The translations under genes and the position numbers were made by a program. The notes below the pieces were generated by a model that worked only from the letters and a program-made list of their open reading frames with translations, was not told the origin of the DNA and did not search any database. DNA of 64,000 nucleotides from Gammaproteobacteria bacterium (GTDB lineage: Bacteria; Pseudomonadota; Gammaproteobacteria; Steroidobacterales; Foliamicaceae). Location: assembly GCA_009838035.1 (NCBI GenBank), contig VXSK01000022.1:2343-66342 (forward strand), given 5' to 3'. This document shows, piece by piece, positions 11,236 through 64,000 of the stretch; the stretch's first letter is position 1; each line of letters opens with the position of its first letter.

Positions 11236-11248
11236 CCGGCGCTTCGAT

Positions 11249-12019: not shown

Positions 12020-12153
12020 GAAGCCGTACTGTAGGTCAAGGCAACCGCGTCTGACAAACGAAGACATCCGGCGTGGCGCAGCGGGCTTTGCAACCCTGTA
12101 CCCATGGACGGCATCCACTTAGGTACTGGTCTTGCAGACAACAGGGGAAACAA

Positions 12154-12588: not shown

Positions 12589-12643
12589 AGGAAGGGATCG
12601 CGCGGGCAGCGCAGGTTGCAGGCGCCAGCCCGAGGTATCGTGG

Positions 12644-13872
<1,229 letters not shown>

Positions 13873-47279: not shown

Positions 47280-48490
47280 CAGATGCGCCCTCTCAGCGCC
47301 TGCACCGGGTCCAGGCGGGCCGCCTTGCGCGCGGGCAGCGCTCCGAACACCAGGCCGCTGCCCACGGCGGTAATCACCGCCGCCAGCACGGCCCACCAGG
47401 GCGGCCGGATTTCAATGGCCGGGAACAGTTGCTGCGCGAACCAGATCAGCAGGTAACCCAGTCCCAGCCCGCACACGGTCCCGATTACCGCAAGAAGCGC
47501 GGCCTCGCCGATAAACAGGCGCATGATCTGGCGGCGGGCTGCTCCTATGGCCATGTAGAGGCCGATCTCCGACGTCCGCTGGCTGACCGCTACCAGCATC
47601 ACGTTCATGATCAGGACCCCGGCCACGATCAGGCTGATCCCGGCGATACCGCCGAGTGCGGCCGTAATCGCGTTGAAGATGCCGTCGAATACCGACAGGA
47701 CCGCGTCCTGGGTGATGGTTATGAAATCCTGCTTGCCGTAATGCTGTTCCTTCAGGCGTTCGGTGAGCCGGCGGATGACTCCGGGCACCGACTCGCGGTC
47801 GCGGGCCTGGACCATGATGTTGGTCAAGGCTTCGGTATTGAACATGGTCGCCGCGAAAGCCACCGGAACCACGACGATCTCGCCCACGTTGATCCCGATG
47901 CTCTGGCCCGTATCGGCCAGCAGCCCCACGATCCGGCAGCGGGAGTCTCCGAGCCGCAGCCAGGTGCCCAGGGCGGGTTCGGAGCCATACAGTTCCTTGA
48001 CCAGCAGTTCTCCCGCCACGCACACCGGGGAAATGCGGTCCATGTCCATGCGCGGGAAGAAAGTTCCGGCACTCAGGTCGAGCCCCCGGATGTGGAAATA
48101 GTCCCGGGTGGTGCCCATCACGAACGATTCCCGTTCCTTCCCGCCCCGCGAGGCGGGCAGGGCACCCATCATCATTGGCGCCGCCTTCATCACGCCCGGC
48201 ACGCGCATCACCACTTCCGCGTCGCGGTAGGTCAGGTCGCGGGGAGCCTCACCGGAAAAACCGAACGGGTTGGAGCCGGATTCGCCGGGATTGCCGGGCT
48301 GCACGATGATGAGTTCGGTCCCCAGGATCCGGAATTCGCCGGTAACGAACAGGCGGCCCGCTTCGCCCAGCGCGGTCAGCAGCAGCACCGACACGATCCC
48401 GATGGACGTGGCGAGCATCATCATGGCGGCGCGCAGCCGGTGACGGAACATCGAGCGCGTCGCCATCAACAGCAGGTCGTTGGTTTTCAT
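47279..48490 (-). CDS. ABC transporter permease (MacB/FtsX-like)
   Basis: ISLIVAGVLIMNVMLVAVSQRTSEIG, AARLDPVQALR. Confidence 0.88.
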   Translation of the reverse strand: MKTNDLLLMATRSMFRHRLRAAMMMLATSIGIVSVLLLTALGEAGRLFVTGEFRILGTELIIVQPGNPGESGSNPFGFSGEAPRDLTYRDAEVVMRVPGVMKAAPMMMGALPASRGGKERESFVMGTTRDYFHIRGLDLSAGTFFPRMDMDRISPVCVAGELLVKELYGSEPALGTWLRLGDSRCRIVGLLADTGQSIGINVGEIVVVPVAFAATMFNTEALTNIMVQARDRESVPGVIRRLTERLKEQHYGKQDFITITQDAVLSVFDGIFNAITAALGGIAGISLIVAGVLIMNVMLVAVSQRTSEIGLYMAIGAARRQIMRLFIGEAALLAVIGTVCGLGLGYLLIWFAQQLFPAIEIRPPWWAVLAAVITAVGSGLVFGALPARKAARLDPVQALRGRI

Positions 48491-48586
48491 TTGCCTGGGT
48501 TTTCGTGGGCAGATGAATTGTGCCTCATGTGGCTTGATGACGCCGAACGGTTACAGTAGCGGCTTCCGATTGACCGGGGCCCCACC

Positions 48587-49336
48587 ATGTTTGCCGGATT
48601 CGAACAACTCCTGCAGGAACACCAGGCCTGGCTGTGGTTCCTGACGGTCATGCTGGACCTCGGGTTCGCGATCCTGCTGTACCGGTTCTTCGGGCGCTAC
48701 GGCCTCTACGGGGCCATCGTCCTGAGCCTCGTCATGGCCAATATCCAGGGTCCGAAACTCACGACCGTCATGGGCCTTGAGACCAGCATGGCGGTCATCC
48801 TTTACTCCAGCATCTTCTTCGCCACCGACCTCCTGAGCGAGAAGTTCGGCCGGCGGGAGGCGCAGCGGGCGGTCCTGCTGGGGTTTGCCGTCAGCGTGAT
48901 GGTGGTGGTGATCAGCCGGGTGGGTTTGTTCTATGCGCCCACATCCGATCCGGACACGGCCGCGTACGCCTTGAGAATGCACGAGGCCATGGCGGCGCTG
49001 TTCGACTACACGCCCCGCTTCGTGTTCGGATCGCTGTTGGCCTATCTACTGAGCCAGAGCTTCGACGTGTGGGTGTTTCACCGGATTCGCAAGGCGACCG
49101 GCGTGAAGCATCTGTGGCTGCGCAACACCGGCTCCACACTCCTTTCGCAGGTCGTGGACACGCTGATCTACGGCCTGGTCGTGTGGTGGGGGATCGTCGA
49201 TCTCGTGACCGCGCTGCAACTGGCCGCGGCCAAATACGTATTCAAGTTCCTGATCGCCGTGATCGACACGCCGTTCATCTACTGGGCCCGGACCTGGAAG
49301 CGGACCGGGCTCGCGCGCGCCGCGGCCGAGCGTTAA
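48587..49336 (+). CDS. yhhQ: Queuosine precursor (preQ0) transporter, YhhQ/VUT family
   Basis: MANIQGPK, FFATDLLSEKFG, GSLLAYLLSQSFDVWVF, LWLRNTGSTLLSQVVDT, DTPFIYW. Confidence 0.8.
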   Translation: MFAGFEQLLQEHQAWLWFLTVMLDLGFAILLYRFFGRYGLYGAIVLSLVMANIQGPKLTTVMGLETSMAVILYSSIFFATDLLSEKFGRREAQRAVLLGFAVSVMVVVISRVGLFYAPTSDPDTAAYALRMHEAMAALFDYTPRFVFGSLLAYLLSQSFDVWVFHRIRKATGVKHLWLRNTGSTLLSQVVDTLIYGLVVWWGIVDLVTALQLAAAKYVFKFLIAVIDTPFIYWARTWKRTGLARAAAER

Positions 49337-49369
49337 ACGCCCGGTTCCTTTTGCGGAGTCTCAATGGCG

Positions 49370-49410
49370 CGCGCCCATCCCGCCGGGGATGCCCCGGCGG
49401 GATGGGCGCG
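49370..49410. terminator. Perfect 19-bp GC-rich hairpin between convergent genes (probable bidirectional terminator)
   Basis: CGCGCCCATCCCGCCGGGG-ATG-CCCCGGCGGGATGGGCGCG. No long U tract on either side. Confidence 0.55.
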
Positions 49411-49478
49411 AAACCAAGCGCCTTTTGGGTGATTCAGGGCGTGGTGCGCTAAGTGCGCGCGACGCCCCAGGAATCCTG

Positions 49479-49814
49479 TTACAGGCTTCCCTTGGATATC
49501 AGGTTCCAGGCACGTACGCCCAGCACGCCCGCGCCACCTGACAGGTAGACGACCGCAACCTGATCGACGATATTGTCGAGGAAGCCGCCGACTGCCGGGA
49601 CGTTGGAAAGCACGTCCGCTCCGCCGGCGGCGGCGACCACCAGTGCGGTGGTCAGAAACGCCTGCGGATTTGCGGCATCAATGTTCATTACGGCGTAAGC
49701 CACTCCGAGCACGACCATGGCCAGCGGGAGAAGGTCGCCGGGGACCGCGCCGGGCGCAACGCCCTCTATGACAGCAGCAAGGATCGCAAGACCGTAAACC
49801 ACACGTGTCGCCAT
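49479..49814 (-). CDS. Small hydrophobic membrane protein of unknown function
   Basis: GGGAGG RBS 7 nt before ATG 49814; 3-4 hydrophobic segments. Confidence 0.6.
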   Translation of the reverse strand: MATRVVYGLAILAAVIEGVAPGAVPGDLLPLAMVVLGVAYAVMNIDAANPQAFLTTALVVAAAGGADVLSNVPAVGGFLDNIVDQVAVVYLSGGAGVLGVRAWNLISKGSL

Positions 49815-49923
49815 TTCCATTCCTCCCAAGTTGGCTAAACAAGCTTCCCAACCTTATCACGCGAAATCGGGCGGGAGGACGGCGCAGGTCGGCGCGCGGC
49901 GATTGCCTTATGGCTGCCCGGAT

Positions 49924-50598
49924 TCAGAGGCGCTCGTCGCCGCCGATACGACCGTCCAGCATGGTCAGCCGCCGCCGCGCGCGGCGGCCGAGGTCCGGGT
50001 CGTGGGTCACGACGACCAGCGTGAGCCCGTCCTCGTTCAGCGATTCCAGAAGCCGGATGATTTCCATGCTTGAGCGCGAATCGAGGTTGCCGGTGGGCTC
50101 GTCGGCCAGCAGCAACTTGGGAGACATGACGATGGAGCGCGCGATGGCGGCTCGCTGGAGCTGACCGCCGGAGAGCTGGTTCGGGCGGTGCTCCATGCGG
50201 TCGGCCAGTTCGACGCGCTCGAGCGCGCGCCTGACCTTCTCGCGGCGCTTTCGCCGGCGCCAGCCGGCCAGTGTCAGCGGCAGTTCGACGTTCTCGAAGG
50301 CGGTCAGGCGCGGAACCAGGTGGAAGAACTGGAACACGAAGCCAATCACCTCGCGCCGCGTGCGCGCCAGCTTGTCGTCGGACATCTTCGCGGTGTCTTC
50401 GCCGAGCAGGCGGTAGCTGCCGCCGTCCGGCGAGTCCAGCAGGCCGATGATGTTCAGCAGCGTGGACTTGCCCGACCCGGACGGTCCCATGATCGACAGG
50501 TATTCGCCCGCCTCGACTTCCAGCGTGATGTTGCGCAACGCGTGCACCACCTGCTCGCCGACCGGGTAGTCGCGGAAAACGCTGGTGAGGGCCAACAC
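49924..50598 (-). CDS. ABC transporter ATP-binding protein (LolD/MacB-like)
   Basis: GPSGSGKST, LSGGQLQRAAIAR, LLADEPTGNLD, VVTHD. Confidence 0.92.
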   Translation of the reverse strand: MLALTSVFRDYPVGEQVVHALRNITLEVEAGEYLSIMGPSGSGKSTLLNIIGLLDSPDGGSYRLLGEDTAKMSDDKLARTRREVIGFVFQFFHLVPRLTAFENVELPLTLAGWRRRKRREKVRRALERVELADRMEHRPNQLSGGQLQRAAIARSIVMSPKLLLADEPTGNLDSRSSMEIIRLLESLNEDGLTLVVVTHDPDLGRRARRRLTMLDGRIGGDERL

Positions 50599-50632
50599 CG
50601 GGCGATACCCTCTGGCCGGAATCGGCTGCGGT

Positions 50633-51781
50633 CTATTCCGCTGCGCGCACTGCCGGCGCGCCCGGCTCGACGCCCGCCCGGTCCAGGCTCAGGACCACCA
50701 GTTCCCCGTTCCTGGCGCCCTCGGTGATCTCGGTGAATTCCCAGTTGCCCAGGCCGATCTCGACCGTGCGTTCCTCGAGAAGACCCGTTTCCGTGTTCAG
50801 CACCATGATCCGTTCGTCCTCGATGACCGCCTCCGTCGGCACGCGAAGGGCCTCGTCGCGCACGTCCACGATCACTTCCACGTCGGCGCTGTAGCCCGGC
50901 ATCAGCCCGTAGCGTTGCGGGTTGTTGATCTCGGCCTCGATCTCCACGGTGCGCGCCTGTTTCTCCAGATCCAGCACGTAAGGCGCAACGCGCCGCACGA
51001 AGCCGGGAAAGAACTGGTCCGGGAAAGCATCAAGCAGGATTCGGGCTTCTTGCCCCGCCTGGACCAGCGGCGCATCGACCTCGTCGATCGGGGCGGTGAT
51101 ATACAGGCAGTTGTTGTCGATCACGTCCACCGTGGGCAGCGTCGCAACGCCCATGGGCGAGGGTGTCACGAACTCGCCCAATTCGCCGTTGATCTCGGCG
51201 ATGACGCCGTCGAAGGGTGAGCGCAGGATGGTGCGTTCCAGGCGTGCGCGGTTGACTTCCACGCGCGCCTCGGCGGCGCTTGCGGAATCGTTGGCCGCCT
51301 TGCAGGACGCGGCCCGCGCTTCCCCTTCGGCTTGGGCCCTTTCCAGCTCCTCCTCGGAGACCAGGTTGTCGTCATGCAGCTTGGCCAGCCGCACCGCCTC
51401 GCGCGCCGCCAGGTCGGCCCGCGTGCAGCTTTCCGCCGCCCGCGACCGCTCTGCAACCATGTTGCGCTGCGAGAGTTCGATTTCGGAGCGCAGGTCCTCG
51501 TTCCAGACCTCCAGCAGCACCTGGCCTTCGGTCACGGCGTCGCCCTCCGCTACGGGAAGGCTCGCAATCTGGCCTGCGGAGGCCGGCGACATCTGCGCCC
51601 GCCGGCAGGCGTCCACCGTGCCCGCGCGAGTGTTCAGCACCGTCTTTCGAATCTCTCCGGTGGTCACCTCGGCCACCCGCACTTCGACCCCGTCCTCGCC
51701 GCCCGAAAACAGGCTGAAGGCGCCCACGATCACGATCGCGGCGATCGCGATCCAGATGCTGTACTTGACGGCCGGGCGCAT
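50633..51781 (-). CDS. Periplasmic adaptor (MacA/HlyD-family membrane fusion protein)
   Basis: N-terminal membrane anchor, GDAVTEGQVL lipoyl half-motif, coiled coil, SPFDGVI, PGYSADVEVIV, VPTEAV. Confidence 0.88.
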   Translation of the reverse strand: MRPAVKYSIWIAIAAIVIVGAFSLFSGGEDGVEVRVAEVTTGEIRKTVLNTRAGTVDACRRAQMSPASAGQIASLPVAEGDAVTEGQVLLEVWNEDLRSEIELSQRNMVAERSRAAESCTRADLAAREAVRLAKLHDDNLVSEEELERAQAEGEARAASCKAANDSASAAEARVEVNRARLERTILRSPFDGVIAEINGELGEFVTPSPMGVATLPTVDVIDNNCLYITAPIDEVDAPLVQAGQEARILLDAFPDQFFPGFVRRVAPYVLDLEKQARTVEIEAEINNPQRYGLMPGYSADVEVIVDVRDEALRVPTEAVIEDERIMVLNTETGLLEERTVEIGLGNWEFTEITEGARNGELVVLSLDRAGVEPGAPAVRAAE

Positions 51782-51833
51782 GGCTGCGTGAGTATAGCCG
51801 CGTCCGCCCGGCCACCCGCGTTATATTCCCCGA

Positions 51834-52964
51834 ATGACCACGCGCATCCGCGACACCCTCCCCGAACACGGCCACAACATCCGCGGCCGGGGCGCCCGCG
51901 GCAACCTGCCCGGCCGCTTCGAACGGCGGACCTACGAGCCGGACCCGGGCGTCGCCGAGATGGCCCCGCATCCCGACACCGAGCTGATCCCCGAACTCAG
52001 CAAGACCATCATCAGCCGCAACAAGTCTCCGGATGTCGGCTTCGAACAGTCCATCAACCCCTACAAGGGCTGCGAGCACGGCTGCATCTACTGCTTCGCG
52101 CGCCCGGCGCATGCCTACCTGGACTTCTCGCCAGGCCTCGACTTCGAGACCAAGATCGTGCACAAGCCCAATGCCGCCGAGTTGCTCAGGAAGGAACTGG
52201 CCAAACCCGGATATCGATGCTCGCCGATCGCCCTGGGCATAAACACCGACGGCTACCAGCCGTTCGAGAAGCAGTTGCGCACCACCCGCTCGCTGCTTGA
52301 GATCATGCTCGAAACCCGCCACCCGGTAACGATCGTCACCAAGTCCGCGCTGGTGGAGCGGGACCTTGACCTGCTGGGCGAACTGGCGCGGCTGGGCCTT
52401 ACCCAGGTCGCGCTGAGCATCACCACGCTGGACGACGAACTCAAGCGCCGCATGGAGCCGCGCACCGCCTCGCCCCGCCGCCGGCTGACGACCATTGAGC
52501 GCCTGACCGAGGCGGGTGTTCCTGCCGGCGTGATGTTCGCGCCCGTCATCCCCGCGCTAAACGACCACGAACTCGAAGCCGTTCTCGAGGCCTCCGCCGA
52601 GGCCGGCGCGCTGTGGGCCGGCTACGCGGTGCTGCGCCTGCCCAACGAGGTCCGTCCGCTGTTCAAGGACTGGCTCGCCGAACAATATCCCCTGCGCGCC
52701 GAACACGTAATGAGCCGCGTCCGCCAGATCCGCGGCGGCAGGGAAAACGACACGACCTTCGGCCGCCGCATGCGCGGCCAGGGTCAATACGCGGACTTGC
52801 TCCGCCAGCGCTTCGAGCGCGCCTGCCGCCGCCACGGCCTGAACCGCGGCACCCGCCCGTCCCTCAAGACCACGCTGTTCCGCCCGCCCGCCGCTCCGCC
52901 AAAGTCTGCGCGCCGTTCTCGACGGAACCCGGTCCCAGACGAACAGCTTTCACTTCTGTCTTGA
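51834..52964 (+). CDS. PA0069-family radical SAM protein (spore photoproduct lyase-like)
   Basis: SINPYKGCEHGCIYCFARPAH (CxxxCxxC), NTDGYQPFE, LRLPNEVRPLF. Confidence 0.9.
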   Translation: MTTRIRDTLPEHGHNIRGRGARGNLPGRFERRTYEPDPGVAEMAPHPDTELIPELSKTIISRNKSPDVGFEQSINPYKGCEHGCIYCFARPAHAYLDFSPGLDFETKIVHKPNAAELLRKELAKPGYRCSPIALGINTDGYQPFEKQLRTTRSLLEIMLETRHPVTIVTKSALVERDLDLLGELARLGLTQVALSITTLDDELKRRMEPRTASPRRRLTTIERLTEAGVPAGVMFAPVIPALNDHELEAVLEASAEAGALWAGYAVLRLPNEVRPLFKDWLAEQYPLRAEHVMSRVRQIRGGRENDTTFGRRMRGQGQYADLLRQRFERACRRHGLNRGTRPSLKTTLFRPPAAPPKSARRSRRNPVPDEQLSLLS

Positions 52965-53710
52965 TCGCACCATTGACCCTGCTATCCGCGATCTGGGCCG
53001 CGCTCGCCGTTCTCGCGTTTGCAGTGAGCTTCAAGGTTCGCGACATCACCGGCCGGATCGGCGGCGCAGGTTGGGGCAAGCACATCGACGCCCGCTGGGG
53101 CTGGTTCTGGATGGAGCTGCCTGCGCTCGTTACGTTCCCCGCAGTCTACTTCGCAAGCGGGAATCTACACCTGGTCGGGAACATCGCAGTTGCGCTGTGG
53201 CTGGCGCACTACGCCCATCGCACCCTGGTGTGGCCCCTCGTCGTGCTCAGGCCGGGCGCCACGATACCGTCCGGCATGTGGCTGAGTGGAGGCGCCTTCA
53301 ACGTGATAAACGGCGCCCTGTTGGGCGCCTACCTGGCGTTTGCTCCCCAGCTCGGTGACGCATGGCTGTCCGATCCGCGATTCATTGCAGGCGGACTCCT
53401 GATGATCGGCGGCGCCTGGCTCAACCTGTGGTCGGACTACCGCCTGCTCGGCCTGCGCCGTCGCAGCGGGCACCAACGCGTCATGCCCAAAGGCGGCGCG
53501 TTCAACCTCTGCTGCAGCCCGAACCTCCTCGGCGAGATCATCGAATGGCTCGGCTTCGCCATGCTGACCTGGTGCCTGCCCGCCCTCGCCTTCGCCCTGT
53601 GGAGCATCGCCAATCTCGTCCCCCGGGCACTCTGGCGCCGCTCCTGGTACCGCACCCACTTCCCCGATTTCCCCAAGACCCGCGCCGCTCTGATCCCCGG
53701 CCTGCTGTAG
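52961..53710 (+). CDS. 3-oxo-5-alpha-steroid 4-dehydrogenase (steroid 5-alpha-reductase) family protein
   Basis: WFWMELPA, HYAHR, NLWSD..L..LR, SPNLLGEIIEWLG, ANLVPRA, FPKTRAALIP. TTG start overlaps the upstream stop. Confidence 0.82.
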   Translation: MIAPLTLLSAIWAALAVLAFAVSFKVRDITGRIGGAGWGKHIDARWGWFWMELPALVTFPAVYFASGNLHLVGNIAVALWLAHYAHRTLVWPLVVLRPGATIPSGMWLSGGAFNVINGALLGAYLAFAPQLGDAWLSDPRFIAGGLLMIGGAWLNLWSDYRLLGLRRRSGHQRVMPKGGAFNLCCSPNLLGEIIEWLGFAMLTWCLPALAFALWSIANLVPRALWRRSWYRTHFPDFPKTRAALIPGLL

Positions 53711-53725
53711 CGCTTAAAAAGCGAA

Positions 53726-55516
53726 CTAAGCCGGCTGCCATTCGCGAAGTTGCTGGTCCCGTTTCAGAACCAGTTGCTGGAACATCAGGCCGTCGAATAC
53801 GGATTCGAGCGTGAAGCCGTCCTCGCCGAGACCGGTTGCGGGCAGGGCGCTGCGCGCCTCGTCCTCGAATGTCGCCTTCAGCCGGATGTCTTGCTGGTAT
53901 GCGGAATGCCACCAGTCCAGAAGACGCGACTTTGCGCTGTCCAGCGCATCAGGACTTGGGAGTCGGTCGGACTTGTTCTGATTGGTCCGGCGGTCGCTGG
54001 GCAGCAGATTCCACAAGTCATTGCAAGGCCAGGCGGAGAAGGGGAAGCAATGATCGATTTCATACTTTCTTGTCAGCCGCTTTCCGGTCCATACGCAATG
54101 CAGAGAACTATGAGCACGCAGAGTCTCCGCGCGCCTACGGGCAATATCGGTGTCGTGTTCGGGCGCAAGCCATTCGAGAGCCTTCCAGTGCGCGTCCCAG
54201 GATTGCTGACCCCCACTGGTTCGCTGTTCGTAAGTCCGCATCATCAGTATCCACTCGTTCAAAACCGCAGGCTCCAGCCAGGCGGCATAACGGCCCATGG
54301 CCTGCCAGAGATTGCGCGGCACCGAAAAGGCACCTAACGACCACAGAAAGGCCTCGTCAATGTTGACAGAGTTCTTCAGGCGCACCGGACCGCTGCGAAC
54401 GCAAGGAAATACGGGCTTGTCGCTTCCGGGGTATGTAATGTAGTTGGCCGGCATACGTCGAATGCAGTTCGCTGCCTCGCGAATCGCCAGGATCAAATTT
54501 TTGGCGTCCTTTTCGCTGAAGCGCTGGCCAACGCGCAGATCGAATGGCGATCGGTCCATCAGTCCTCGAAAACCTGCCTTTACGAAGCCCAGGTGCTGAT
54601 TGCCGCGAGGCTGCTGCGGAAGGTCCGCCTTGATCAGCGGCTGGAAGGATCGGATCCAGTAGAGCGCCACCAGTCCGAGGGGCAATTCCACGTGATCATC
54701 GTTCGCTCGGGGACGCGCGAAGCCTGCGGCGCCGTCGGCGATTCGCAACAGCGCCCGCAACAGGGCCAGTTTGTAGGTTGAAGACTTCTGATCATTGAAC
54801 ACAACGTGCCGAAGCAGCGGCAATGCGCCCGTACCGTCGTCCGGCAACTGCAGCCAAACGACCTCCCATGAGACTGCTTTTCGCCCGCTCGCGTCATTGC
54901 TTTTCGTCACACGGATCACCTGCAATCCGTGTCGTCGCGCCAGTCCTTCTATTTCCGCGGAGGTGGCGTGGCTCATGGGGCGTCCCGGCGCGGGCGGGCC
55001 TTGGCGAAGGCTGATCATCATGCTGCCACCGGGGCCGAGCACCGAAACGAGCTTGCGAAAGGCCCGATGTCTCTGGCTGGCCGGCAGATGGTGCCAGACT
55101 GCGCTTACCCACACGAGATCGAAAGAGGATTTGGTTCGCAGCAACTTTTCGAGCGCCGGAAGCCGGTCATCAAGCCAGCGAATTTTCGACGACTTGTGTC
55201 GCGCACTGCCCGCCTCGCGCATCCCGGAAGAAGGCTCGACGGCCACGACACTATGGCCCTGCTCCGCAAACCAGGCGGCATCCCGACCGCTTCCCGCACC
55301 CACGTCCAGCACATTGCCGGAAGACTCGGGCAGCAGATCCGCAACCTGCCGATGCACGCTCCCAAACGGAATTCGTTCGTAGCCGTCGAAGAGCCCCGGC
55401 GCTTTGGCGTTGTACGCCGCCACGACATCGCGCACCCCGAAGCTTTCGGATCGAGCCGTGGCTGAGATGTTCCCCGGACTATTGTCGGAATGGCCGGACT
55501 CTAATTCCGTTGGCAT
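53726..55516 (-). CDS. Class I SAM-dependent methyltransferase fused to an HNH endonuclease
   Basis: N half: LDVGAGSGRDAAW, VAVEPS, WLDDRLP. Middle: KSSTYKLALLRAL. C half: CVWTGKRL...IDHCFPFSAWPCNDLWNLLP...N..KSD. Confidence 0.8.
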   Translation of the reverse strand: MPTELESGHSDNSPGNISATARSESFGVRDVVAAYNAKAPGLFDGYERIPFGSVHRQVADLLPESSGNVLDVGAGSGRDAAWFAEQGHSVVAVEPSSGMREAGSARHKSSKIRWLDDRLPALEKLLRTKSSFDLVWVSAVWHHLPASQRHRAFRKLVSVLGPGGSMMISLRQGPPAPGRPMSHATSAEIEGLARRHGLQVIRVTKSNDASGRKAVSWEVVWLQLPDDGTGALPLLRHVVFNDQKSSTYKLALLRALLRIADGAAGFARPRANDDHVELPLGLVALYWIRSFQPLIKADLPQQPRGNQHLGFVKAGFRGLMDRSPFDLRVGQRFSEKDAKNLILAIREAANCIRRMPANYITYPGSDKPVFPCVRSGPVRLKNSVNIDEAFLWSLGAFSVPRNLWQAMGRYAAWLEPAVLNEWILMMRTYEQRTSGGQQSWDAHWKALEWLAPEHDTDIARRRAETLRAHSSLHCVWTGKRLTRKYEIDHCFPFSAWPCNDLWNLLPSDRRTNQNKSDRLPSPDALDSAKSRLLDWWHSAYQQDIRLKATFEDEARSALPATGLGEDGFTLESVFDGLMFQQLVLKRDQQLREWQPA

Positions 55517-55747
55517 ATTTCGCCGGATGACAAGGCTTGTTCTTGATTCTTGCTGTTGGTCTAAGGCCGCTTACAAGAAGCCTGCATAACCGCAGGCGAC
55601 ACGCACGGCGTTTCCTGACAATAGCATGCAGCGACAAGTGTTGGCCATGCGCAGCTTCTTGTTCGACAGCGCGCTTTCGCCGAGAATCTATCTTGAATGG
55701 AGATTCGCCATGGGGGCGGAGAGGAAGTTCCGAGGAGGGAACAAAGG

Positions 55748-55999
55748 ATGGAGATTCAACTTACCTTGCAGCATATCGGAATGCAGCTGGACGATACGAA
55801 GAAGACGTTTTACACGGAACGTAAGGAACCGAAGCCTGATTCCGAAATGATGGGCCAGCTCGTGGAGGATTTCCGCGACGAACTGGATAAGCTCGATAGT
55901 CAGGTGCACTCGCTGCGCTGCGGGCTGCGGCGAATGGAAAGCACACTGGAAAGGGAAGGCGGAGGGAGTGGCTACAGCACCCGAATCGGGCCGGGATAG
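55748..55999 (+). CDS. Small coiled-coil hypothetical protein overlapping the 3' end of the PIN gene
   Basis: AAAGG before ATG 55748; heptad-like LVEDFRDELDKLDSQVHSL. Coding status unproven. Confidence 0.4.
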   Translation: MEIQLTLQHIGMQLDDTKKTFYTERKEPKPDSEMMGQLVEDFRDELDKLDSQVHSLRCGLRRMESTLEREGGGSGYSTRIGPG

Positions 56000-56358
56000 T
56001 CGCGAAGTTTCTTGTCGGCCGTCAATAGCGTGAGACCTTCAATTTGCGCTTGTGCAATGAGAATTCGATCAAAGGGATCCTTATGGATGTCCGGTAGCAG
56101 ATCAACTGCCACAGCGTGCGCTCCCGTCACAGGGAGTTCGGAGTAACCGTTCTCAAGCAATCCACGCCTGAGAAGGCGCGGGTCGACATTGAAATCGGCG
56201 TGTCCTCGACCGTTCTTGATGGCGACTTCCCATAGTGATGCGGCGCTGAAGAACAGCTCTGTGGCCTTGTCTTGAATCAGGTCGCGCGCTTCCAGCGGTA
56301 GCCGGTCCGGATGACCGGAAGTCCAGAGCAGCACATTTGCGTCGAGAAGAAACATCAC
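55972..56358 (-). CDS. vapC: PIN-domain (VapC-like) toxin
   Basis: LLDANVLLW, SAASLWEVAIK, HKDPFDRILIAQA, LLTAD: the acidic active-site residues are present. Confidence 0.88.
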   Translation of the reverse strand: MMFLLDANVLLWTSGHPDRLPLEARDLIQDKATELFFSAASLWEVAIKNGRGHADFNVDPRLLRRGLLENGYSELPVTGAHAVAVDLLPDIHKDPFDRILIAQAQIEGLTLLTADKKLRDYPGPIRVL

Positions 56359-56408
56359 TTTTTCCCAACCGCTGCCTCGGACGCGCCGGAGTGCGCCGAA
56401 CCCGTATA

Positions 56409-56424
56409 AGCTATTATAATAGCT
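56409..56424. promoter_or_regulatory. Perfect 16-bp palindrome containing TATAAT on both strands, between divergent PIN and integrase genes
   Basis: AGCTATTATAATAGCT equals its own reverse complement. Confidence 0.55.
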
Positions 56425-56579
56425 CTACAAATATACACTTTCCGACTTGCCTCGCGCCTTGCACCGACGCCAAAAATGCGATGTAATACGCCCATATTTC
56501 GAGCCGGGCGCTTTCGATTCGCTTACGGTAAATCGGCATTGTCGAATCCGGCCCGGCACGAACCCGACCGACGAACGCG

Positions 56580-57143
56580 ATGCCCCAGCCAAGTTACCGC
56601 ACCCTTTCAAAGCGCACCGTGGACCGCCTGTCGGTGGACGACAAGGATACCGTGTTCTGGGACCGGGAGCTGCCCGGCTACGGTGTCAGGGTCTATCCGA
56701 GCGGGCGCAAGGTCTACGTGGTGCAGACGCGGGTCGCCGGCAAGTCCCGGCGCATCACCGTGGGCCGTCACGGCGACATCGCGCCCGACCGGGCCCGCAA
56801 GGACGCCGCGAAGATCATCGCGCGCGTCAAGGCTGGGGAGCCGCCGGTCGAGACCAAACCCGAGGCCCCGCCGACCGTCGCCGACCTCGCGGGGCGTTAT
56901 CAGCGCGAGCACGTCGCCATGCATTGCAAGCCCAACACGGTCAAGCACTACGGCCTGATGCTCAAGAAGCACATCGTGCCGCGCCTCGGGGGACTGGAGG
57001 TCGCCGAGGTGGAGCGCAGGGACATCCTCAAGTTCCAGTTCCAGTTGAGCGACATGCCCACGGTGGCCAACCGCTGCGTGGACATGCTGGTCAAGATGTT
57101 CAAACAGGTACATGATTTCCGCCTAGCGGCGGCGTTATCCTAG
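56580..57143 (+). pseudogene. Truncated tyrosine integrase (arm-binding and core-binding domains only)
   Basis: VFWDRELPGYGVRVYPSGRKVY...RITVGRHG (arm-DNA-binding/DUF4102-like), TVADLAGRY, HIVPRLG, ANRCVDML. Similarity stops near 57102, before any R-H-R-H-Y catalytic domain. Confidence 0.8.
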
Positions 57144-57482
57144 ATAATTCATAAATAACAATCGGTTACAAACCTTCCGTTTCGCTGGCTCTCTAGGCCC
57201 TCCATTCTCAGGTACCAATTAGGTACCACTTCATTTCCAAGTCAGGCGCACGCTTGCGCCGCCAATCCGCAGGCTGATTCGGCCATCCCGCCGCGCAACC
57301 GCGCATTCGATTCGCGCCGACGCAGGCCCCGACCCGTTCCACGACAACGATCCGCCGTTCGCCGTCTGCCGGCCTTGCGCCGGCGAGAGGGGAGTTTCGG
57401 CCGGAAGCGGGGGGGTCGGCGGCGCTCCGGGAGAGGGGCGCTGCCGCCGTTCCCTTTCACCTGACCGAAGGAGCATCGAACC

Positions 57483-57809
57483 ATGCAGGCGGCACTCGCA
57501 CCGCGCGGCGACGCGCGCACCTATCTCACGCACTTCGTCGGCGGGGGGCTCGATGACGAGCGCTACGTCGTCGAGACCTTCCGCTCGCTGGCCAACGGCG
57601 ACATCGTTCCCGTTCAGGCGGACGGTTCGAGGCCCAGGGGCCGGCGCAAGGCGCGCGGCCGGATCCTGCCGCTGAAGGCGGTCGAGAAGCTGCGTCCGGC
57701 CCGCGACGAGATCATCATCGCGACGGGGGTGAAGCGGCGCAACTCCGGTTGCCAGGTCTGGGGTTGGCGCGCACTCGGTCTGTTTCTGGAGCGCCGTCAG
57801 AAAGGCTGA
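57483..57809 (+). CDS. Hypothetical protein (108 aa)
   Basis: Strong GAAGGAG RBS; host-like codon usage. Confidence 0.6.
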   Translation: MQAALAPRGDARTYLTHFVGGGLDDERYVVETFRSLANGDIVPVQADGSRPRGRRKARGRILPLKAVEKLRPARDEIIIATGVKRRNSGCQVWGWRALGLFLERRQKG

Positions 57810-57895
57810 GTTTCCGCATTTGCGGACGTCCAGCCGGCCCGTCGCCGGTTGGACATCCGCAGTCCCGTCCCCCCCTGTTACACCTGGAGCAGCCC

Positions 57896-58906
57896 ATGGC
57901 CTACCGTGACGTTGAGCAACGCCGACGACGCGACCGCGAGCGGTTCCTCGAGCGAACCGAACGACGCCGGGCGGCCGGGCTTTGCCCTCGGTGCGGAGTT
58001 CGCCGGCCCGAGAACGGACTCGCGCTGTGCGGCGAGTGCGCCGGGAAGCGCCGGGCATCGGAGCGGGCGCGCGACGCGCGCCGGCGGGCCGCCGGCATCA
58101 AGCGCCGCCGCAACGTGGTCGGCGAACGGGCGAGGGACCGCCGGCGGACCGCCGAGTGGATCGCACGGGGGGTCTGCACGAAGTGCGGCGTCAATCAACC
58201 TGAGCCCGGTCGCCGGCTCTGCGCCGCATGCGGCGAGAAGCGACGCGCCGCCGAGCGCGCCCGATACGCCCGGGCCAAACGCCGGGGCGAGCTCTATGGC
58301 GGCCGGAATCCGCAGGTCAAGCGCAAGGCCGGACGGGCGGCCAGCGCCCGGCGCCGGCAGGCCCGCCTCGACGGCGGGACATGCGTGCGCTGCGGGCGTC
58401 GGCTGCCCGTCGAGGGCGGCGCCACCTGCCAGCCGTGCCGTGAGATTCGGCAGGCCGCGGAGCGCGAGCTGTACGCCTCCCGGAAGGCCGCCGGGCTTTG
58501 CGTATCCTGTGGCCGGCCGGCTTTTGCGGGCGAGGCCCGTTGCGGCGTGTGCGCGACCGTCGATGGCCAGAGGCGAAACCGAGACCGAAAGAACGCCACC
58601 TCCCGACGCCGGTATTGGGAACGGCGAGAGGCTGGCCGCTGCACGGACTGCAACCGGCCGAGCTTCGGGGCGTCGCGCTGCCCGGGCTGCGCGAAACGCT
58701 CCTACGAGCGCTCCGATTTCTTCCGCGGCATCCCGGCGTGGGATCCGAGCTTCACCGTCATCGAGCTGGCCACCGGAGAGACGCATGGCCCGTTCGATTC
58801 CGAAGCCGATGCCGTCGCCGAACTGGCCTTCGCCGGCTTGTCGTTCGACGAGGTGGAGATCGTGAACGACGCGCCGGTCACGGCGCGCTACGCCGCATGG
58901 GCCTGA
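57896..58906 (+). CDS. Arg-rich protein with five tandem CxxC-x(9-11)-CxxC units and an acidic C-terminal domain
   Basis: CPRC/CGEC, CTKC/CAAC, CVRC/CQPC, CVSC/CGVC, CTDC/CPGC. GGAG RBS before ATG 57896. Confidence 0.75.
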   Translation: MAYRDVEQRRRRDRERFLERTERRRAAGLCPRCGVRRPENGLALCGECAGKRRASERARDARRRAAGIKRRRNVVGERARDRRRTAEWIARGVCTKCGVNQPEPGRRLCAACGEKRRAAERARYARAKRRGELYGGRNPQVKRKAGRAASARRRQARLDGGTCVRCGRRLPVEGGATCQPCREIRQAAERELYASRKAAGLCVSCGRPAFAGEARCGVCATVDGQRRNRDRKNATSRRRYWERREAGRCTDCNRPSFGASRCPGCAKRSYERSDFFRGIPAWDPSFTVIELATGETHGPFDSEADAVAELAFAGLSFDEVEIVNDAPVTARYAAWA

Positions 58907-59032
58907 ACGCTTGTCGCCCTTCGGCGGGAGGGATTCCAGAGAGTAGGAGGACAGCGAGTGCCGGGTAGGCGTCCGGGAGCGCGGAGGGAGAACGGCTCCC
59001 CCGGCCCGGGCGCGACACCTGAAGGAGCCCCC

Positions 59033-59209
59033 ATGTTCGTACCCGACACCGACTACGACCCCATCGCCCCGGCCACCGGCTGCCTGCTCGCCGAGATCGG
59101 CATCGACATCGACGCCGTGCGCGAGACCCTCGCCGACGACCTCGCCCACCACTGTCCCGACCGCGAGGTCCCGGATACCGGGAGATGGAGGGAAGCGGGA
59201 GAAGGGTGA
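59033..59209 (+). CDS. Small acidic hypothetical protein (58 aa)
   Basis: GAAGGAG RBS; MFVPDTDYDPIAPATGCLLAEIGIDIDAVRETLADDL... Confidence 0.5.
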   Translation: MFVPDTDYDPIAPATGCLLAEIGIDIDAVRETLADDLAHHCPDREVPDTGRWREAGEG

Positions 59210-59292
59210 ACGGACGAGGGGCCGGAGCGAGGGCTTCCGGTTCCCGACCGTTCGCCAACCCATCGTCATCACTCAGCAGAAGGAGAATCCCC

Positions 59293-59751
59293 ATGAGCTT
59301 CGGATTGAACAGGGCAGAAGTCATCGGCCGGCTCGGCGCCGACGTGACCGTGAATCACCTGGTGTCGGGGGGCCGCGTGGCCAATCTCAGCATCGCCACC
59401 GACGAGTCGTACATCGACCGGGAAGGCCAGAAGGTCGACAAGACCGAGTGGCACCGCGTCGTCACGTTCCAGCCCGGGCTGGTGGACATGCTGGCCAGGC
59501 ACGCGCGGAAGGGCCGGCTGGTCTACGTCGCGGGCAAGCTGCAGACGCGGCGCTGGCGCAAGGACGGCGAGGCCTCCGACCGCTTCTCGACCGAGATCCT
59601 CCTGGCCCCCGGTTCCCGCATCCAGTTCCTGGATCGGCCGGGGGCTCCCAACGGCAACGGCGCGCACGCCGAGGCCGAGGCGGCGGCCAACGGCTCGACC
59701 GTGCCGGAGGGTGGCGAAGCCACCGACCCGGACATGTCGATCCCGTTCTGA
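59293..59751 (+). CDS. ssb: Single-stranded DNA-binding protein (mobile-element type)
   Basis: NRAEVIGRLGAD, ANLSIAT, TEWHRVV, LVYVAGKLQTRRW, acidic tail ending DMSIPF. Confidence 0.92.
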   Translation: MSFGLNRAEVIGRLGADVTVNHLVSGGRVANLSIATDESYIDREGQKVDKTEWHRVVTFQPGLVDMLARHARKGRLVYVAGKLQTRRWRKDGEASDRFSTEILLAPGSRIQFLDRPGAPNGNGAHAEAEAAANGSTVPEGGEATDPDMSIPF

Positions 59752-59949
59752 GGCTGCGCCTCTCCCGCCCCCGAATAGGGCCGTCGCTTCGCGCGTCGGC
59801 CCTATTCTCATGCTGCCCACTTCGAGTCCTCACGCCGGGTTCACGGAGCGACCCCGTGAGCTGGAGTGAGAGTGAAGCCCGTTGCGGGCGAACGCCGCAC
59901 GGCCGGGAGGGAGGCCGGGCGGCATCGAATCCCGAGACAGGAGCCCACC

Positions 59950-60177
59950 ATGAGTTACGTCACCTTCAAGCGCGTCCGCCCGGACGAATCCCGCATCTAC
60001 GACGCCGAGGGCGACTACGTCGGCGACGTGTACGCCCACGACGACATCCTCAACCCCGGCCAGCGGGTCTACCTGGTCCTGCTCGAGGACGACCCCCGGG
60101 GCTGGGCTACGGTGCGTGACCGCAACCGCATCCGAGAGATCGCCGAGCAGCGTCTTCTGTCACATCCGTACCGCTGA
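59950..60177 (+). CDS. Small hypothetical protein (75 aa)
   Basis: CAGGAG RBS; MSYVTFKRVRPDESRIYDAEGDYVGDVY...; high GC at third codon positions. Confidence 0.6.
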   Translation: MSYVTFKRVRPDESRIYDAEGDYVGDVYAHDDILNPGQRVYLVLLEDDPRGWATVRDRNRIREIAEQRLLSHPYR

Positions 60178-60473
60178 GTGCGCGGCGGTGCTGTCGCACG
60201 AGCCGGCGAGGTCCATCGTCAAGCCCGGCACCGTGCTCGCCGACAGGCCCAAAAAAGAGGTCGTGCCAATCCCAAACAAAGCTCTCTCCTCTGTATGTCC
60301 CATCGTGCCACACGTGCTCACTGCGCCAACCCCTTCGGGGTTCTCCACTGCGTTGCGACCGCTGCGCGGTGGCTGCGCTGCGCGCGCGTGTCCCAATGAA
60401 ACATACGCCGGAGCGAGCCACGCAACGGCATCACGGGCCGGTTGGCCCTACCACTCAAGACAGGAGACTCTCA

Positions 60474-61400
60474 ATGTACGACATCGACCACATCGACACC
60501 TTCCAGGCGCAATCCCCCACCGCGGTGATCTGCGAGAACGCGGCACTGTACGGCGCCACCCCCGAGCGCGGCGAGTTCGATCCTCGCGAGATCTGGGACC
60601 GCGACGGTGCCGTCGCGGCCGTCGGCGAAGCGTTCCGCCTCCTCGCCGAGCACGTGACGCCCGACGGGTTCCAACTCGCCGACGAACGCGAGCACCTGCT
60701 CTGGGGGTTCGCGAATACTCTCGACGCACAGGTCCGCCGGATCGACCGGCGCATCGACAGGCTGATGCCCAAGATGCGCGACCTGCAATCCTCACAGGAC
60801 GGCTCCGAAGTCAAGGCGAGAGAACTCGAACTCACGACCGACCGCGCCCGCCACCTCGGCGACCGCCGCGACGCCTTCGAGCAACTGCGCGACACCGCCG
60901 CCGACGCCTACCGCGCCGCCACCGGCGACACCTGGCGGCCGCGGCGCGGCAGCCACGTCTCCCAGACCCGCAAGCTGACTTCCGCAGCCATCGACGCCCG
61001 CGACTTCCAGCGCGCAAGAAAGGACCGCGAGATACAAGCGCACCTGCCCGACGGCACCCTGGTCGCCGTCGCCGGCGGCAAGACCGTCAACCATCCCGAT
61101 GCGGTATCGCGCAGCCTGGACAAGGCCCGCGCCAAGTACCCCGACCTGGTCCTGGTGCACGGCGGCGGCCCCGGCGTCGACAAGATCGCTGCCCAGTGGG
61201 CCGAGCGCCACGGCGTGCACCAGATCGTGTGCAAGCCCGACTGGCAGCGGTATGGACGGGCCGCACCGTTCCGGCGCAACGACGAGCTGCTGAACCTGCT
61301 GCCCAAGGGCGTCATCGCCTTCCCCGGCAGCGGCATCACCGGCAACCTCGTCGACAAGGCCAAGTCCATGGGCATCCCGGTGATGCGGGCCGCTGCATAG
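60474..61400 (+). CDS. SLOG-superfamily (DUF2493/YspA-like) domain protein with N-terminal helical extension
   Basis: C-terminal TLVAVAGG...LVLVHGGGPGVDKIAAQWA...PDW.RYGRAAPFRRNDELL...IAFPGSGITGNLV.KA..MGIPV. Confidence 0.8.
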   Translation: MYDIDHIDTFQAQSPTAVICENAALYGATPERGEFDPREIWDRDGAVAAVGEAFRLLAEHVTPDGFQLADEREHLLWGFANTLDAQVRRIDRRIDRLMPKMRDLQSSQDGSEVKARELELTTDRARHLGDRRDAFEQLRDTAADAYRAATGDTWRPRRGSHVSQTRKLTSAAIDARDFQRARKDREIQAHLPDGTLVAVAGGKTVNHPDAVSRSLDKARAKYPDLVLVHGGGPGVDKIAAQWAERHGVHQIVCKPDWQRYGRAAPFRRNDELLNLLPKGVIAFPGSGITGNLVDKAKSMGIPVMRAAA

Positions 61401-61795
61401 CCGCCACGACAACGGGCCGTGCCGTTCGCCGGTGCGGCCCGTTCCGCTCTTGTGTCAGCAGCCGGTACGGCGATGCGGGCCGCGTCGCGCCCGCTCGCCG
61501 TCACCGGGTACGCCTCGCTTGGCCTCGCCGGCTGCGCAGGCATCGGCCATCGCCCCGGCGCGTCGCTCGAACACTGCGTGCTTCGCCAGTGTCGGCTTCG
61601 CCGTTCACCGGGCTCCGCACTCCCGTCGATGGCGGTGTCGATCCCGGTGCGCACATCGCGGTCCGCTTCGCCGTGCACCGGCTCGCGCACCGGTGCGGGC
61701 GCTCGTGCCGGGTCAAGTGCGCGCCGAACCGCGTCCGTCGCCGCATAGCTTTCGTCCAAATCCGCTGTAATACGGCGTAGTACGGAAAAACACCC

Positions 61796-62193
61796 GTGTA
61801 TGCTCCAGAGCACACGCCCGATTCTCCGGAGAACCGCCGTATGCTGTCAGCATACATCGCCGTCAGGTCCGCGCTCGAAACGCCTCGGCTGCTTCCTGGA
61901 TTACGGCCCTGCAACTGCCCCCGGCTCACGGCTCAGGCTCGTATAGGGTCTGTCCAATCCCTCCCGCTCAAGCGCCGCTCGGGCTAAACCGTTGGTTATC
62001 AACGGTTTTCCATCCCCATGGGTTGAGCTTCCTCCTCCGGTTCCGTCTCGACGGCGGAGCCGGTTCGCGTTCACACCTCACGCACCTCGGTGCCCGTCGA
62101 GGCAAGCGCGCGCCTGTCGTGTTTCGCCTGCGTTTTCAACGACAGGAGCCGCCTGGCGGTTGCCGGGAAGAGTGGATGCTCTGGAGCATACAC
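61796..62193. repeat. 398-bp non-coding segment bounded by a perfect 17-bp inverted repeat, with internal palindromes
   Basis: GTGTATGCTCCAGAGCA 61796-61812; TGCTCTGGAGCATACAC 62177-62193; internal GTATGCTG-T-CAGCATAC 61839-61855. Confidence 0.7.
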
Positions 62194-62676
62194 AGGGAAC
62201 AAAATTCGAATATATACAACGGCATCAATAACTTGCGTCAGTCAGGACTCCGTTTACCGAAGAGACCGACCATAGGGATTGTCAAACCGGGCAGTCAAAG
62301 TGACTGCGCGCCCGGTTGCGCTGGCCGTTGACAGCACTCAATCTGACTGCGTGGCTGAAGCCGCCGTAGGGCTGGCCCCATCGCGCCGAGCCAGGCCCGT
62401 CGGTGCGCCCGGCGCTACGGTTGTCGGCGAAGCTGTCGTACGGTGAGGTGACCGAATTTGCTCAGGAGGGCGCCAAGAGCCGATGGTGGAAACGTTGACG
62501 GAGACCATCCGGGCCACGCCGGATCAATGAGCCGCGACACGAAAGCCCCGATCAACGCAGCGTGGCTGGTAATATGGTTGTTCTTCAAATGATCGAAACG
62601 CATCCCCGAGCGGACCAAAGCAGGATTGGCCTGAGAACTAAGGGGACCTCACCACCAATTCAGGGAGACGGCACTC

Positions 62677-64000
62677 TTGTCTGAGTCGACTGCGGCGGAC
62701 TTCCATCAATTCTTTACCGAGCTGAGTGGCAGCAAGGACCCGCGCCGCTGGCAGTGCGAGCTATCCGATCCGACGGAATGCGGGAACCGCCTGATTCGCA
62801 TACCCACGGGCGTCGGAAAAACGCTCGGCGTGCTTGCGGCTTGGGCTTGGCATCGCGTCAGACAGCGCAACGAAGATTGGCCGCGCCGCCTGATCTGGTG
62901 CTTGCCGATGCGCGTGCTCGTCGAACAGATAGAGAGCGAAGTCCGATCAGCGCTTCAACGTCTCGAAGTGCTATGGGACGGTGAGAGCCCCCATGACGGC
63001 AGGGTTGGTGTCCACTTGCTAATGGGCGGCGCCGACGCCGGCCAGTGGCATCTCCACCCCGAAGGCGACGCGGTGCTGATTGGCACGCAAGACATGCTGC
63101 TTTCTCGCGCCTTGAACCGTGGCTACGCAAGCCCTAGAGCGCGGTGGCCCATGGAGTTCGGGCTGCTGAACCAGGACGCCCTTTGGGTGATGGACGAAGT
63201 GCAGTTGATGGATGTGGGCCTCGCAACGTCGGGGCAGCTTCAGGCATTTCGGTGCGAGGATCGGTGCGCCAAAAGGTCGTTGCGGCCCTGTTTCACATGG
63301 TGGATGAGCGCGACGTTGCAGCCCGCCTGGTTGGAGAGGAGTCCCGACACGACCGATCTGACCGGAGAGCTTGCCCGTAACACGCACCAAATCCGATCTG
63401 CAGAGCAGGTGGGAGATCTATGGGATGAAATGACCAAACCCTTGGAGGTCGTTCCGTTTGCCAATCCGAAGGCGCTTGCTCGGGATGTCTCACAACGTCA
63501 CCACCGTTGCGGATGCGGAAAGAAGGGGCCGACGCTGGTCGTGCTCAACACGGTGGAGCGCGCGGTTGACGTATGGACGGCGCTTCGACGGGACAAGACG
63601 CTGAAGGACGCGGGTACGGACATTCGCTTGGTGCACAGCCGGTTCCGCCCGGCCGAACGCCGAGATTGGCGCAGAGAGTTCCTTGATCGAGGGGGTTGCG
63701 GCCCGGATACGAACCGCATCATCGTCTCCACGCAGATAATCGAAGCCGGCGTGGATATCTCCGCGTCCCTTCTGATCACTGAGCTTGCGCCGTGGCCAAG
63801 CTTGGTTCAGCGATTCGGCCGCTGCGCGCGATGGGGTGGCATGGGCCAAGTCATCGTTGCGGACTTCAAGCACAAGAGTGACAAGAAAGCCTCTCCCTAC
63901 ACAAAGGATGAGCTCGACGTCTCGCGCGATGCCTGCAATGCGTTGCCGGATGTCGGACCGGTCCATCTGGAAAGGTACGAGAACAAGCACGAAGCACTGC
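62677..64000 (+). CDS. cas3: CRISPR-associated helicase Cas3, helicase-first (type I-G/I-U-like), partial; runs off the window
   Basis: Manual translation of frame 1 is open from TTG 62677 (AGGGAG RBS) to the window end: IPTGVGKT, PRRLIWCLPMRVLVEQ, LMGG, IGTQDMLLSRALNRGY, WVMDEVQLM, MSAT, NTVERA, HSRFRPAER, STQIIEAGVDIS, LVQRFGRCAR. No HD domain ahead of the helicase. Confidence 0.85.
   Translation, partial: MSESTAADFHQFFTELSGSKDPRRWQCELSDPTECGNRLIRIPTGVGKTLGVLAAWAWHRVRQRNEDWPRRLIWCLPMRVLVEQIESEVRSALQRLEVLWDGESPHDGRVGVHLLMGGADAGQWHLHPEGDAVLIGTQDMLLSRALNRGYASPRARWPMEFGLLNQDALWVMDEVQLMDVGLATSGQLQAFRCEDRCAKRSLRPCFTWWMSATLQPAWLERSPDTTDLTGELARNTHQIRSAEQVGDLWDEMTKPLEVVPFANPKALARDVSQRHHRCGCGKKGPTLVVLNTVERAVDVWTALRRDKTLKDAGTDIRLVHSRFRPAERRDWRREFLDRGGCGPDTNRIIVSTQIIEAGVDISASLLITELAPWPSLVQRFGRCARWGGMGQVIVADFKHKSDKKASPYTKDELDVSRDACNALPDVGPVHLERYENKHEAL

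Follow-up and report, generated by a model that had tools for sequence, protein, structure and literature searches.

The DNA examined here is a 64,000-nucleotide stretch of contig VXSK01000022.1 from a Gammaproteobacteria bacterium (assembly GCA_009838035.1), hereafter the window. At its right edge, an open reading frame (ORF) started with TTG at position 62677 of the plus strand and stayed open for 441 codons up to base 64000, with a Shine-Dalgarno sequence, GGGAG (62663-62667), placed 9 nt upstream of the TTG. It corresponds to the 5' half of cas3g, with which a CRISPR-Cas system of subtype I-G (formerly I-U) begins. It was absent from the ORF track solely because it runs off the window edge. 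The translation contained all of the motifs quoted in the initial annotation, namely IPTGVGKT (Walker A), MDEVQLMD (motif II), MSATLQ, VHSRFRP, VQRFGRCAR and GTQDMLLSRALNRGY, and Pfam returned DEAD, Helicase_C and Cas3-like_C_2. Proteins were identified with the NCBIfam curated cut-offs, plus Pfam. The window half scored 442 bits against TIGR02621 (E 5e-132, model positions 1-423 of 854), which is above the 400-bit cut-off set for the whole Cas3g protein, showing that the ORF is real and far beyond chance. The protein was thus a helicase-first Cas3, as annotated, and no HD domain was found in its N-terminal 441 amino acids (aa). A sequence search of the PDB returned no Cas3g structure, only distant Cas3 helicase cores.

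The continuation past base 64000 was read from public sponge-metagenome contigs identical to the window. The contig L081 (ENA sponge-metagenome scaffold_85) was found by an exact-protein match to the SLOG gene (ATG at 60474), and L084 and L088 were reached by walking outward with Csb2 and then Int401, an integrase described below. L081 and L084 matched window positions 50474-64000 over 13,527 bases with 0 mismatches (100% identity). The NCBI contig VYFW01000058.1 (GCA_009842185.1), from a metagenome-assembled genome (MAG), was 100% identical to L084 across 11.7 kb. Positions beyond the window are given in extended window coordinates (L084 position + 58816). The cas3 stretch of the window was detected in four sponge metagenome runs, with all sampled words in two of them and 94% and 80% in the other two. 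No plasmid record was similar to window positions 60000-64000.

Downstream reading yielded the remainder of a type I-G locus (Table 1). The full-length Cas3g carried a C-terminal HD domain at residues ~645-815 (HD sub-model), encoded outside the window and containing the motifs AGHG, RWHDLGK, FRHE and CAHHGK; this is where the initial annotation had expected the nuclease. The start of csx17 overlapped the stop of cas3, and csb1, csb2, a CRISPR array, cas2 and a cas4-cas1 fusion followed, as predicted from the edge ORF. All six Cas proteins (Cas3g, Csx17, Csb1, Csb2, Cas2 and Cas4g/Cas1g) exceeded the NCBIfam curated cut-offs with near full-length model coverage, and the gene order was identical in the NCBI MAG contig and in several samples. 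The locus is therefore a complete type I-G system, with HD domain, array and adaptation genes. The canonical gene set that had been anticipated was present and the effector genes stood in the expected order; the adaptation genes did not, since cas2 and cas4-cas1 lay beyond the array and were convergent with the effector operon instead of running co-directional with it.

The array repeat read GCTTCAATGAGGCCGGGGCGCGCGCGCCCCGGATGC on the plus strand. Its reverse complement ended in ATTGAAGC, which places transcription of the array on the minus strand, starting at the leader next to cas2. The truncation of the odd repeat was internal and lay at the csb2-proximal end, so that the damaged repeat marks the old end of the array. 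Ten of the 11 spacers were 36-39 nt long and one was truncated. The repeat folded into an 8-bp stem with a 4-nt loop, preceded by 4 nt and followed by a 12-nt tail. In Thioalkalivibrio, the Csb2 cut falls 4 nt 3' of the hairpin, giving a handle of 8 nt (PMC9638904); the same geometry applied to the present repeat predicts a cut between CCUC and AUUGAAGC. The repeat tail GGCCTCATTGAAGC was invariant in 13 of 14 related arrays while the stems co-varied; for the remaining array (L018) the consensus was partial, and its stem resembled the one described here. The array gave no match in Rfam. A spacer match to the adjacent gene cassette, which the initial annotation had proposed to look for, was not found in the cassette, in any other part of the window or in any of 87 loci, so self-targeting of the cassette is not supported.

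Most close homologues of the window Cas3g (P0003 and others) were ~1170 aa long and ended in a Fic domain; a C-terminal Fic domain was present in 86 of 122 such homologues (protein clusters), with the motif HPFEDFNGR. This motif has Phe in place of Gly relative to the canonical HPFx[D/E]GNGR, and the domain matched 'mobile mystery protein B' (TIGR02613). The window protein shared 75-80% aa identity with the Fic-tagged subfamily over the helicase, the HD domain and 50 linker residues, but lacked the ~210-aa Fic domain. In the Fic-tagged example L001 (1169 aa, L001 9992-13501), the alignment with the window Cas3g ran through residue 953 (...GGDSPPR), after which Cas3g had its last 8 codons, RRFAQESFR-stop, against RRFSQGSSR-stop in L001. 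The deletion join was clean and in frame at the DNA level, and the overlap of cas3 and csx17 was kept. Other Fic-less relatives showed assorted truncations and decay, many of them independent. Together, the clean join and the disorder elsewhere make deletion from a Fic-tagged ancestor the parsimonious explanation; an in-frame loss of ~630 bp would have converted such a Cas3g into the present form. In 2013, Fic/DOC toxin genes that stand alone were noted in type I cas loci, among them that of Geobacter sulfurreducens (PMC3936711). No published description of a Cas3g-Fic fusion was found, the reported cases being the free-standing Fic genes in cas loci (PMC3936711). A natural Fic-less derivative of Cas3g offers a useful comparison for Fic domain function.

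The whole CRISPR-Cas locus lies in a 21,067-bp integrative element that split an integrase gene, bearing out the earlier suggestion of island cargo. This was seen by comparison of the occupied site with L091, a contig from another sponge study that had an intact integrase, the same flanks and no insert. The left neighbors in L091 were those of the window (radical-SAM, steroid dehydrogenase, methyltransferase-HNH, an 83-aa gene and PIN), and the right neighbors were those of the extended window (Int401, a 311-aa gene and an OMP gene). In blastn against the merged sequence, L091 1-10524 corresponded to 46580-57103 and 10515-12901 to 78171-80555, with a single AGATGTTCAA at L091 10515-10524. A truncated integrase ORF at 56580-57143 (+) matched Int401 residues 1-187 and a 208-aa ORF at 78200-78826 (+, extended) matched residues 188-390, and the frame upstream of the latter resumed exactly at the divergence point of the left fragment. 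The two halves were on the same strand and abutted perfectly. When 56580-57103 was joined to 78181-78826 through one AGATGTTCAA, an intact 389-aa integrase ORF was obtained; intact 389-aa integrases found elsewhere were 95-96% identical to it (P0124, 96%), and L091 carries one of these. Paired TCAGGTACC-N3-TAGGTACC motifs (GGTACC pairs, putative arm sites) stood just inside both element ends. There were no tRNA genes near either end, and a search for direct repeats of at least 16 nt between the island edges gave nothing useful. The occupied and empty sites form an exact pair, which shows that in uncultured sponge symbionts an entire type I-G locus travels with a 21-kb integrase element. The target of the insertion was the integrase gene of another element, and the att sequences are now defined and open to laboratory testing.

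Table 1. Features of the type I-G locus, its carrier element and the interrupted integrase gene. Positions marked "extended" use extended window coordinates.
Feature	Position	Strand	Evidence or remark
N-terminal half (~175 codons) of split P4-type tyrosine integrase, target gene	56580-57103	+	aligns with Int401 1-187
Direct repeat AGATGTTCAA, 10 bp, left copy (attL core or target duplication)	57094-57103		single copy in L091
Integrative element, 21,067 bp; left 6.9 kb in window	57104-78170 extended		L091 comparison
Arm-type-like motif pair TCAGGTACCaatTAGGTACC	57208-57227	+	just inside left end
Six-gene cassette, conjugative leading-region-like	57483-61400	+	gene calls, Pfam
Cassette gene, 108 aa	57483-57809	+	gene call
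Cassette Zn-ribbon, 336 aa	57896-58906	+	gene call, Pfam
Cassette gene, 58 aa	59033-59209	+	gene call
Cassette SSB	59293-59751	+	gene call, Pfam
Cassette gene, 75 aa	59950-60177	+	gene call
Cassette SLOG/YAcAr	60474-61400	+	gene call, Pfam
Non-coding stretch, 1.28 kb, ends as cas3 5' leader	61401-62676	+	Shine-Dalgarno GGGAG at 62663-62667
cas3g codons 1-441 of 961 (helicase half)	62677-64000	+	translation, Pfam, TIGR02621
Cas3g, 961 aa	62677-65562 extended	+	TIGR02621 733.5 bits, model 1-853/854
csx17/cas8g	65559-67733 extended	+	TIGR04113 453 bits (cut-off 150), model 1-712 of 718
csb1/cas7g	67736-68812 extended	+	TIGR02570 65.5 bits (cut-off 38); Pfam Cas_GSU0053 match
csb2 (Cas5-Cas6 fusion)	68817-70502 extended	+	TIGR02165 167.5 bits (cut-off 45), model 4-489/492
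CRISPR array	70602-71424 extended	transcribed on -	11 identical 36-nt repeats plus one truncated
Leader, 266 bp, AT-richer	71425-71690 extended	-	beside cas2
cas2	71691-71984 extended	-	TIGR01573 37.6 bits (cut-off 24.5)
cas4g/cas1g fusion	71998-73659 extended	-	NF049935 739.9 bits (cut-off 560), full length
Type II restriction endonuclease	73797-74540 extended	-	model positions 1-244 of 247
Methyltransferase	74542-76530 extended	-	840 bits
Int384, P4-type tyrosine integrase	76853-78007 extended	-	Arm-DNA-bind_3 and Phage_integrase domains
Twin arm-type-like pair TCAGGTACCggaTAGGTACC	78035-78054 extended		adjoins Int384 gene
Right copy of AGATGTTCAA	78171-78180 extended		empty site with single copy

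Taken together, we regard it as highly probable that a complete I-G system is carried in this 21,067-bp element and that its Cas3g became Fic-less by in-frame deletion. Several points weigh against this view. All data beyond base 64000 came from identical public contigs and not from the window's own assembly. The 10-bp core is short, and neither an excised or circular form nor the empty-site joint at 57103 was seen in four sponge metagenomes, which were assembled contigs from which rare forms are dropped. GC content was uneven (68-73% in the cassette, 58-63% in the cas genes and 55-57% in the restriction-modification pair), and a second left-hand context, with an L082-type junction at ~57312, was seen in two runs (X3 and X4), so that the insert may have been assembled stepwise as a mosaic. 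Spacer targets were absent from phage and plasmid records, as from the window and the 87 loci; six spacers had no exact match (cores) in IMG/VR, and the newest had none in JGI metagenomes. No promoter-like site was found in the array leader and no sigma-70-like site on the plus strand upstream of cas3. RNA support consisted of three short contigs from a relative, 94-98% identical over cas3 and its 5' leader in one sponge metatranscriptome, for which DNA carry-over is possible; one of the metatranscriptome matches, ~94% identical, covered 62454-62686. These contigs weakly suggest that a close relative of the locus is transcribed.

The restriction-modification pair of the element was intact, with full-length model matches. 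Genes for a relaxase, coupling protein or type IV secretion were not present among the called genes of the 21-kb insert, indicating that conjugative transfer could occur only in trans, at most. Close relatives of Int384 were found at island edges with other defense cargo. In L097 (10001-21155), the integrase was 90% identical to Int384, the GGTACC motif pair was kept beside it, and the cargo consisted of HigBA and BrxB followed by a 1148-aa ORF (BREX-like). In L098 and L099, the integrase was 84% identical and the cargo comprised an MmeI-type restriction-modification gene and, after it, the cassette seen in the window, which in L099 (355-14700) was homologous and collinear (SSB 85% and SLOG 75% aa identity). 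The L099 cassette adjoined a decayed integrase remnant. The integrase-proximal ends of the three elements (here, L097 and L099) aligned up to TTAGAT(GTTC). Beyond this point the flanks diverged, being an integrase gene for the present element and ABC-ATPase genes for the other two, which supports site-specific insertion by integrases of this family. A rule by which cassette-led elements would invariably enter integrase genes at one fixed codon did not hold, since the decayed remnant in L099 is broken at a different point and the L097 and L099 islands are inserted at or within ABC-transporter ATPase genes. None of 80 relatives had the SSB/SLOG cassette linked to cas3.

The presence of the locus on a mobile element that also bears a restriction-modification pair, and the other defense cargo of same-integrase relatives (BREX-like in L097, MmeI-type in L098 and L099), would fit a system that serves mainly the element, either against rival plasmids, integrative and conjugative elements (ICEs) and phages or as addiction-like cargo. 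An array that is short (11 spacers), damaged at its oldest end and without identified targets would also fit such a role, or a recent arrival not yet, or no longer, adapting. We consider these possibilities rather unlikely, given that all genes were intact and the repeats identical; immunity that serves the element and immunity that serves the host look alike in sequence, and the two can coexist.

Less likely still is that the 21-kb segment did not enter as one unit by means of its own integrase but grew by accretion, whether paralogous integrase genes recombined homologously or several insertions became nested. Three P4-type integrase genes, paralogous to one another at 41-58% aa identity, crowd the site along with two recombinase trios, the GC content is heterogeneous, and the cassette-plus-cas block of L082 has a different left flank from 208 bp inside the element. 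Yet the empty site differed by exactly the insert and one 10-bp repeat copy, with the target ORF restored in frame, the Int384-side end was conserved to the same core in two other genomes, and matching arm-type motif pairs stood at both ends. Such a history is improbable.

In L082 (1-6837), the left flank encoded a Gp49/HTH toxin-antitoxin pair and a Na+/H+ antiporter, and it included SSB, Toprim, DUF4326, 75-aa and SLOG genes as a second set in inverted orientation. An apparent 'split cas3' in L082 was rejected as an artefact, the breaks being 10-N scaffold gaps. To the right of the insertion, extended positions 78829-90034 (L088 10001-21206) formed a recombinase hot spot, in which a second P4-type integrase, Int401, was followed by two tyrosine recombinase trios (340/327/406 aa and 333/307/521 aa) plus RadC fragments. 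The trios resembled 'recombinase in trio' elements.

Adaptation genes and array were missing within 10 kb of cas3 in 12 of the 21 closest loci (L001-L021), and effector modules without adaptation genes may be frequent among these MAGs of sponge symbionts. An IS21 transposase followed csb2 in L001. Although these incomplete relatives, and a window that by itself ends at codon 441, could suggest a stand-alone Cas3-like helicase without cas partners, as the initial annotation had allowed if no cas genes lay downstream, that is extremely improbable when csx17, csb1, csb2, the array, cas2 and cas4/cas1 follow directly in 100%-identical DNA and the order recurs in the NCBI MAG contig and several samples. 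The edge ORF thus turned out to be the first gene of a textbook-complete type I-G system and no orphan helicase. Where close relatives had adaptation genes or an array, these were placed upstream and divergent, and distant relatives showed the canonical co-directional order; the convergent layout seen here is a third arrangement beside these two. The nearest relatives also differed by module. Cas3 was ~75% identical to that of many loci. Csx17 was 72% identical to L004 and L005 only and at most 57% to other loci, and Cas4-Cas1 was 83% identical to L018 only, followed by L011 (76%, with the match at the locus edge) and the rest (at most 59%). These differences point to module exchange between lineages.

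A working model can be drawn from family membership and the characterized Thioalkalivibrio system. Transcription of the array would start in the leader beside cas2 and proceed along the minus strand. The Cas6-like C-terminal domain of Csb2 would then cleave each 36-nt repeat 4 nt 3' of the 8-bp hairpin, leaving the 8-nt 5' handle AUUGAAGC, and the resulting CRISPR RNA (crRNA) would assemble with Csb2, Cas7g and Cas8g/Csx17. Cas3g, with helicase first and HD nuclease last, would be recruited to this complex and would nick and unwind matching DNA, while new spacers would be inserted at the leader end by Cas4-Cas1 and Cas2. Insertion of the element itself most likely proceeded by integrase-mediated site-specific recombination at the AGATGTTC(AA) core within the integrase gene of the resident island.

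Cas3g proteins related to that of the window were distributed widely, as judged by the MAG labels in record titles. Identity to the window Cas3g was 76% in a Gammaproteobacteria and a Nitrospirales MAG, 75% in Vicinamibacterales, 74% in Alphaproteobacteria, 73% in Latescibacterota, 70% in a Prochlorococcaceae cyanobacterium, 69% in both Rhodothermales and Binatia, and 61% in a Nitrosopumilaceae archaeon. Similar Cas3g proteins across differently labelled MAGs indicate horizontal transfer. The archaeal locus (L032) also had csx17, csb1, csb2 and an array with a repeat ending in CCCCATTGAAGC; its Cas3g reflects either cross-domain transfer or a binning error. With the element described here, a concrete vehicle is at hand for the similarity of these systems across phyla. 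It is a tentative possibility, which we hold to be somewhat short of an even chance, that the carrier represents a family, not yet described, of small tyrosine-integrase elements (~14-21 kb) in sponge symbionts. Its members may have in common a conserved integrase end, with GGTACC arm-site pairs and a TTAGATGTTC core; a 'leading-region' cassette of SSB, SLOG and Zn-ribbon genes; a defense payload that can be exchanged; and insertion into coding genes, the integrase genes of rivals among them. The payloads may comprise I-G with an XhoI-type restriction-modification pair here, the MmeI-type gene in L098 and L099, and BrxB with the 1148-aa ORF (BREX-like) in L097. If such a family exists, its shuttles could explain the occurrence of 70-76% identical Cas3g in the MAGs labelled Gammaproteobacteria, Alphaproteobacteria, Nitrospirales, Vicinamibacterales, Latescibacterota and Prochlorococcaceae, and of the 61% identical Cas3g in the archaeal MAG.

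The category, type I-G CRISPR-Cas, is already known, and the locus adds a further member. Its gene set and effector order were the same as in Geobacter sulfurreducens (GSU0051-0054/0057-0058) and Thioalkalivibrio sulfidiphilus HL-EbGr7 (PMC9638904). In common with known I-G systems, it had the effector order cas3 (C-terminal HD), csx17/cas8g, csb1/cas7g and csb2 (Cas5-Cas6 fusion), together with a cas4-cas1 fusion, cas2, and a 36-nt repeat whose hairpin and 12-nt tail would give an 8-nt handle. However, the adaptation module and array were convergent with the effector operon and not co-directional, the Cas3g tail retained the linker of the apparently lost Fic domain, and the locus was carried by a small integrative element. 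Type I-C CRISPR-Cas systems occur on pKLC102-like ICEs of Pseudomonas aeruginosa, and type I-F systems on Vibrio islands. As in those cases, a complete type I system was found in a tyrosine-integrase element near defense genes. By contrast, the subtype here was I-G, the carrier was only 21 kb long without relaxase or type IV secretion genes, the insertion was inside the integrase gene of another element, and the host was an uncultured sponge symbiont.

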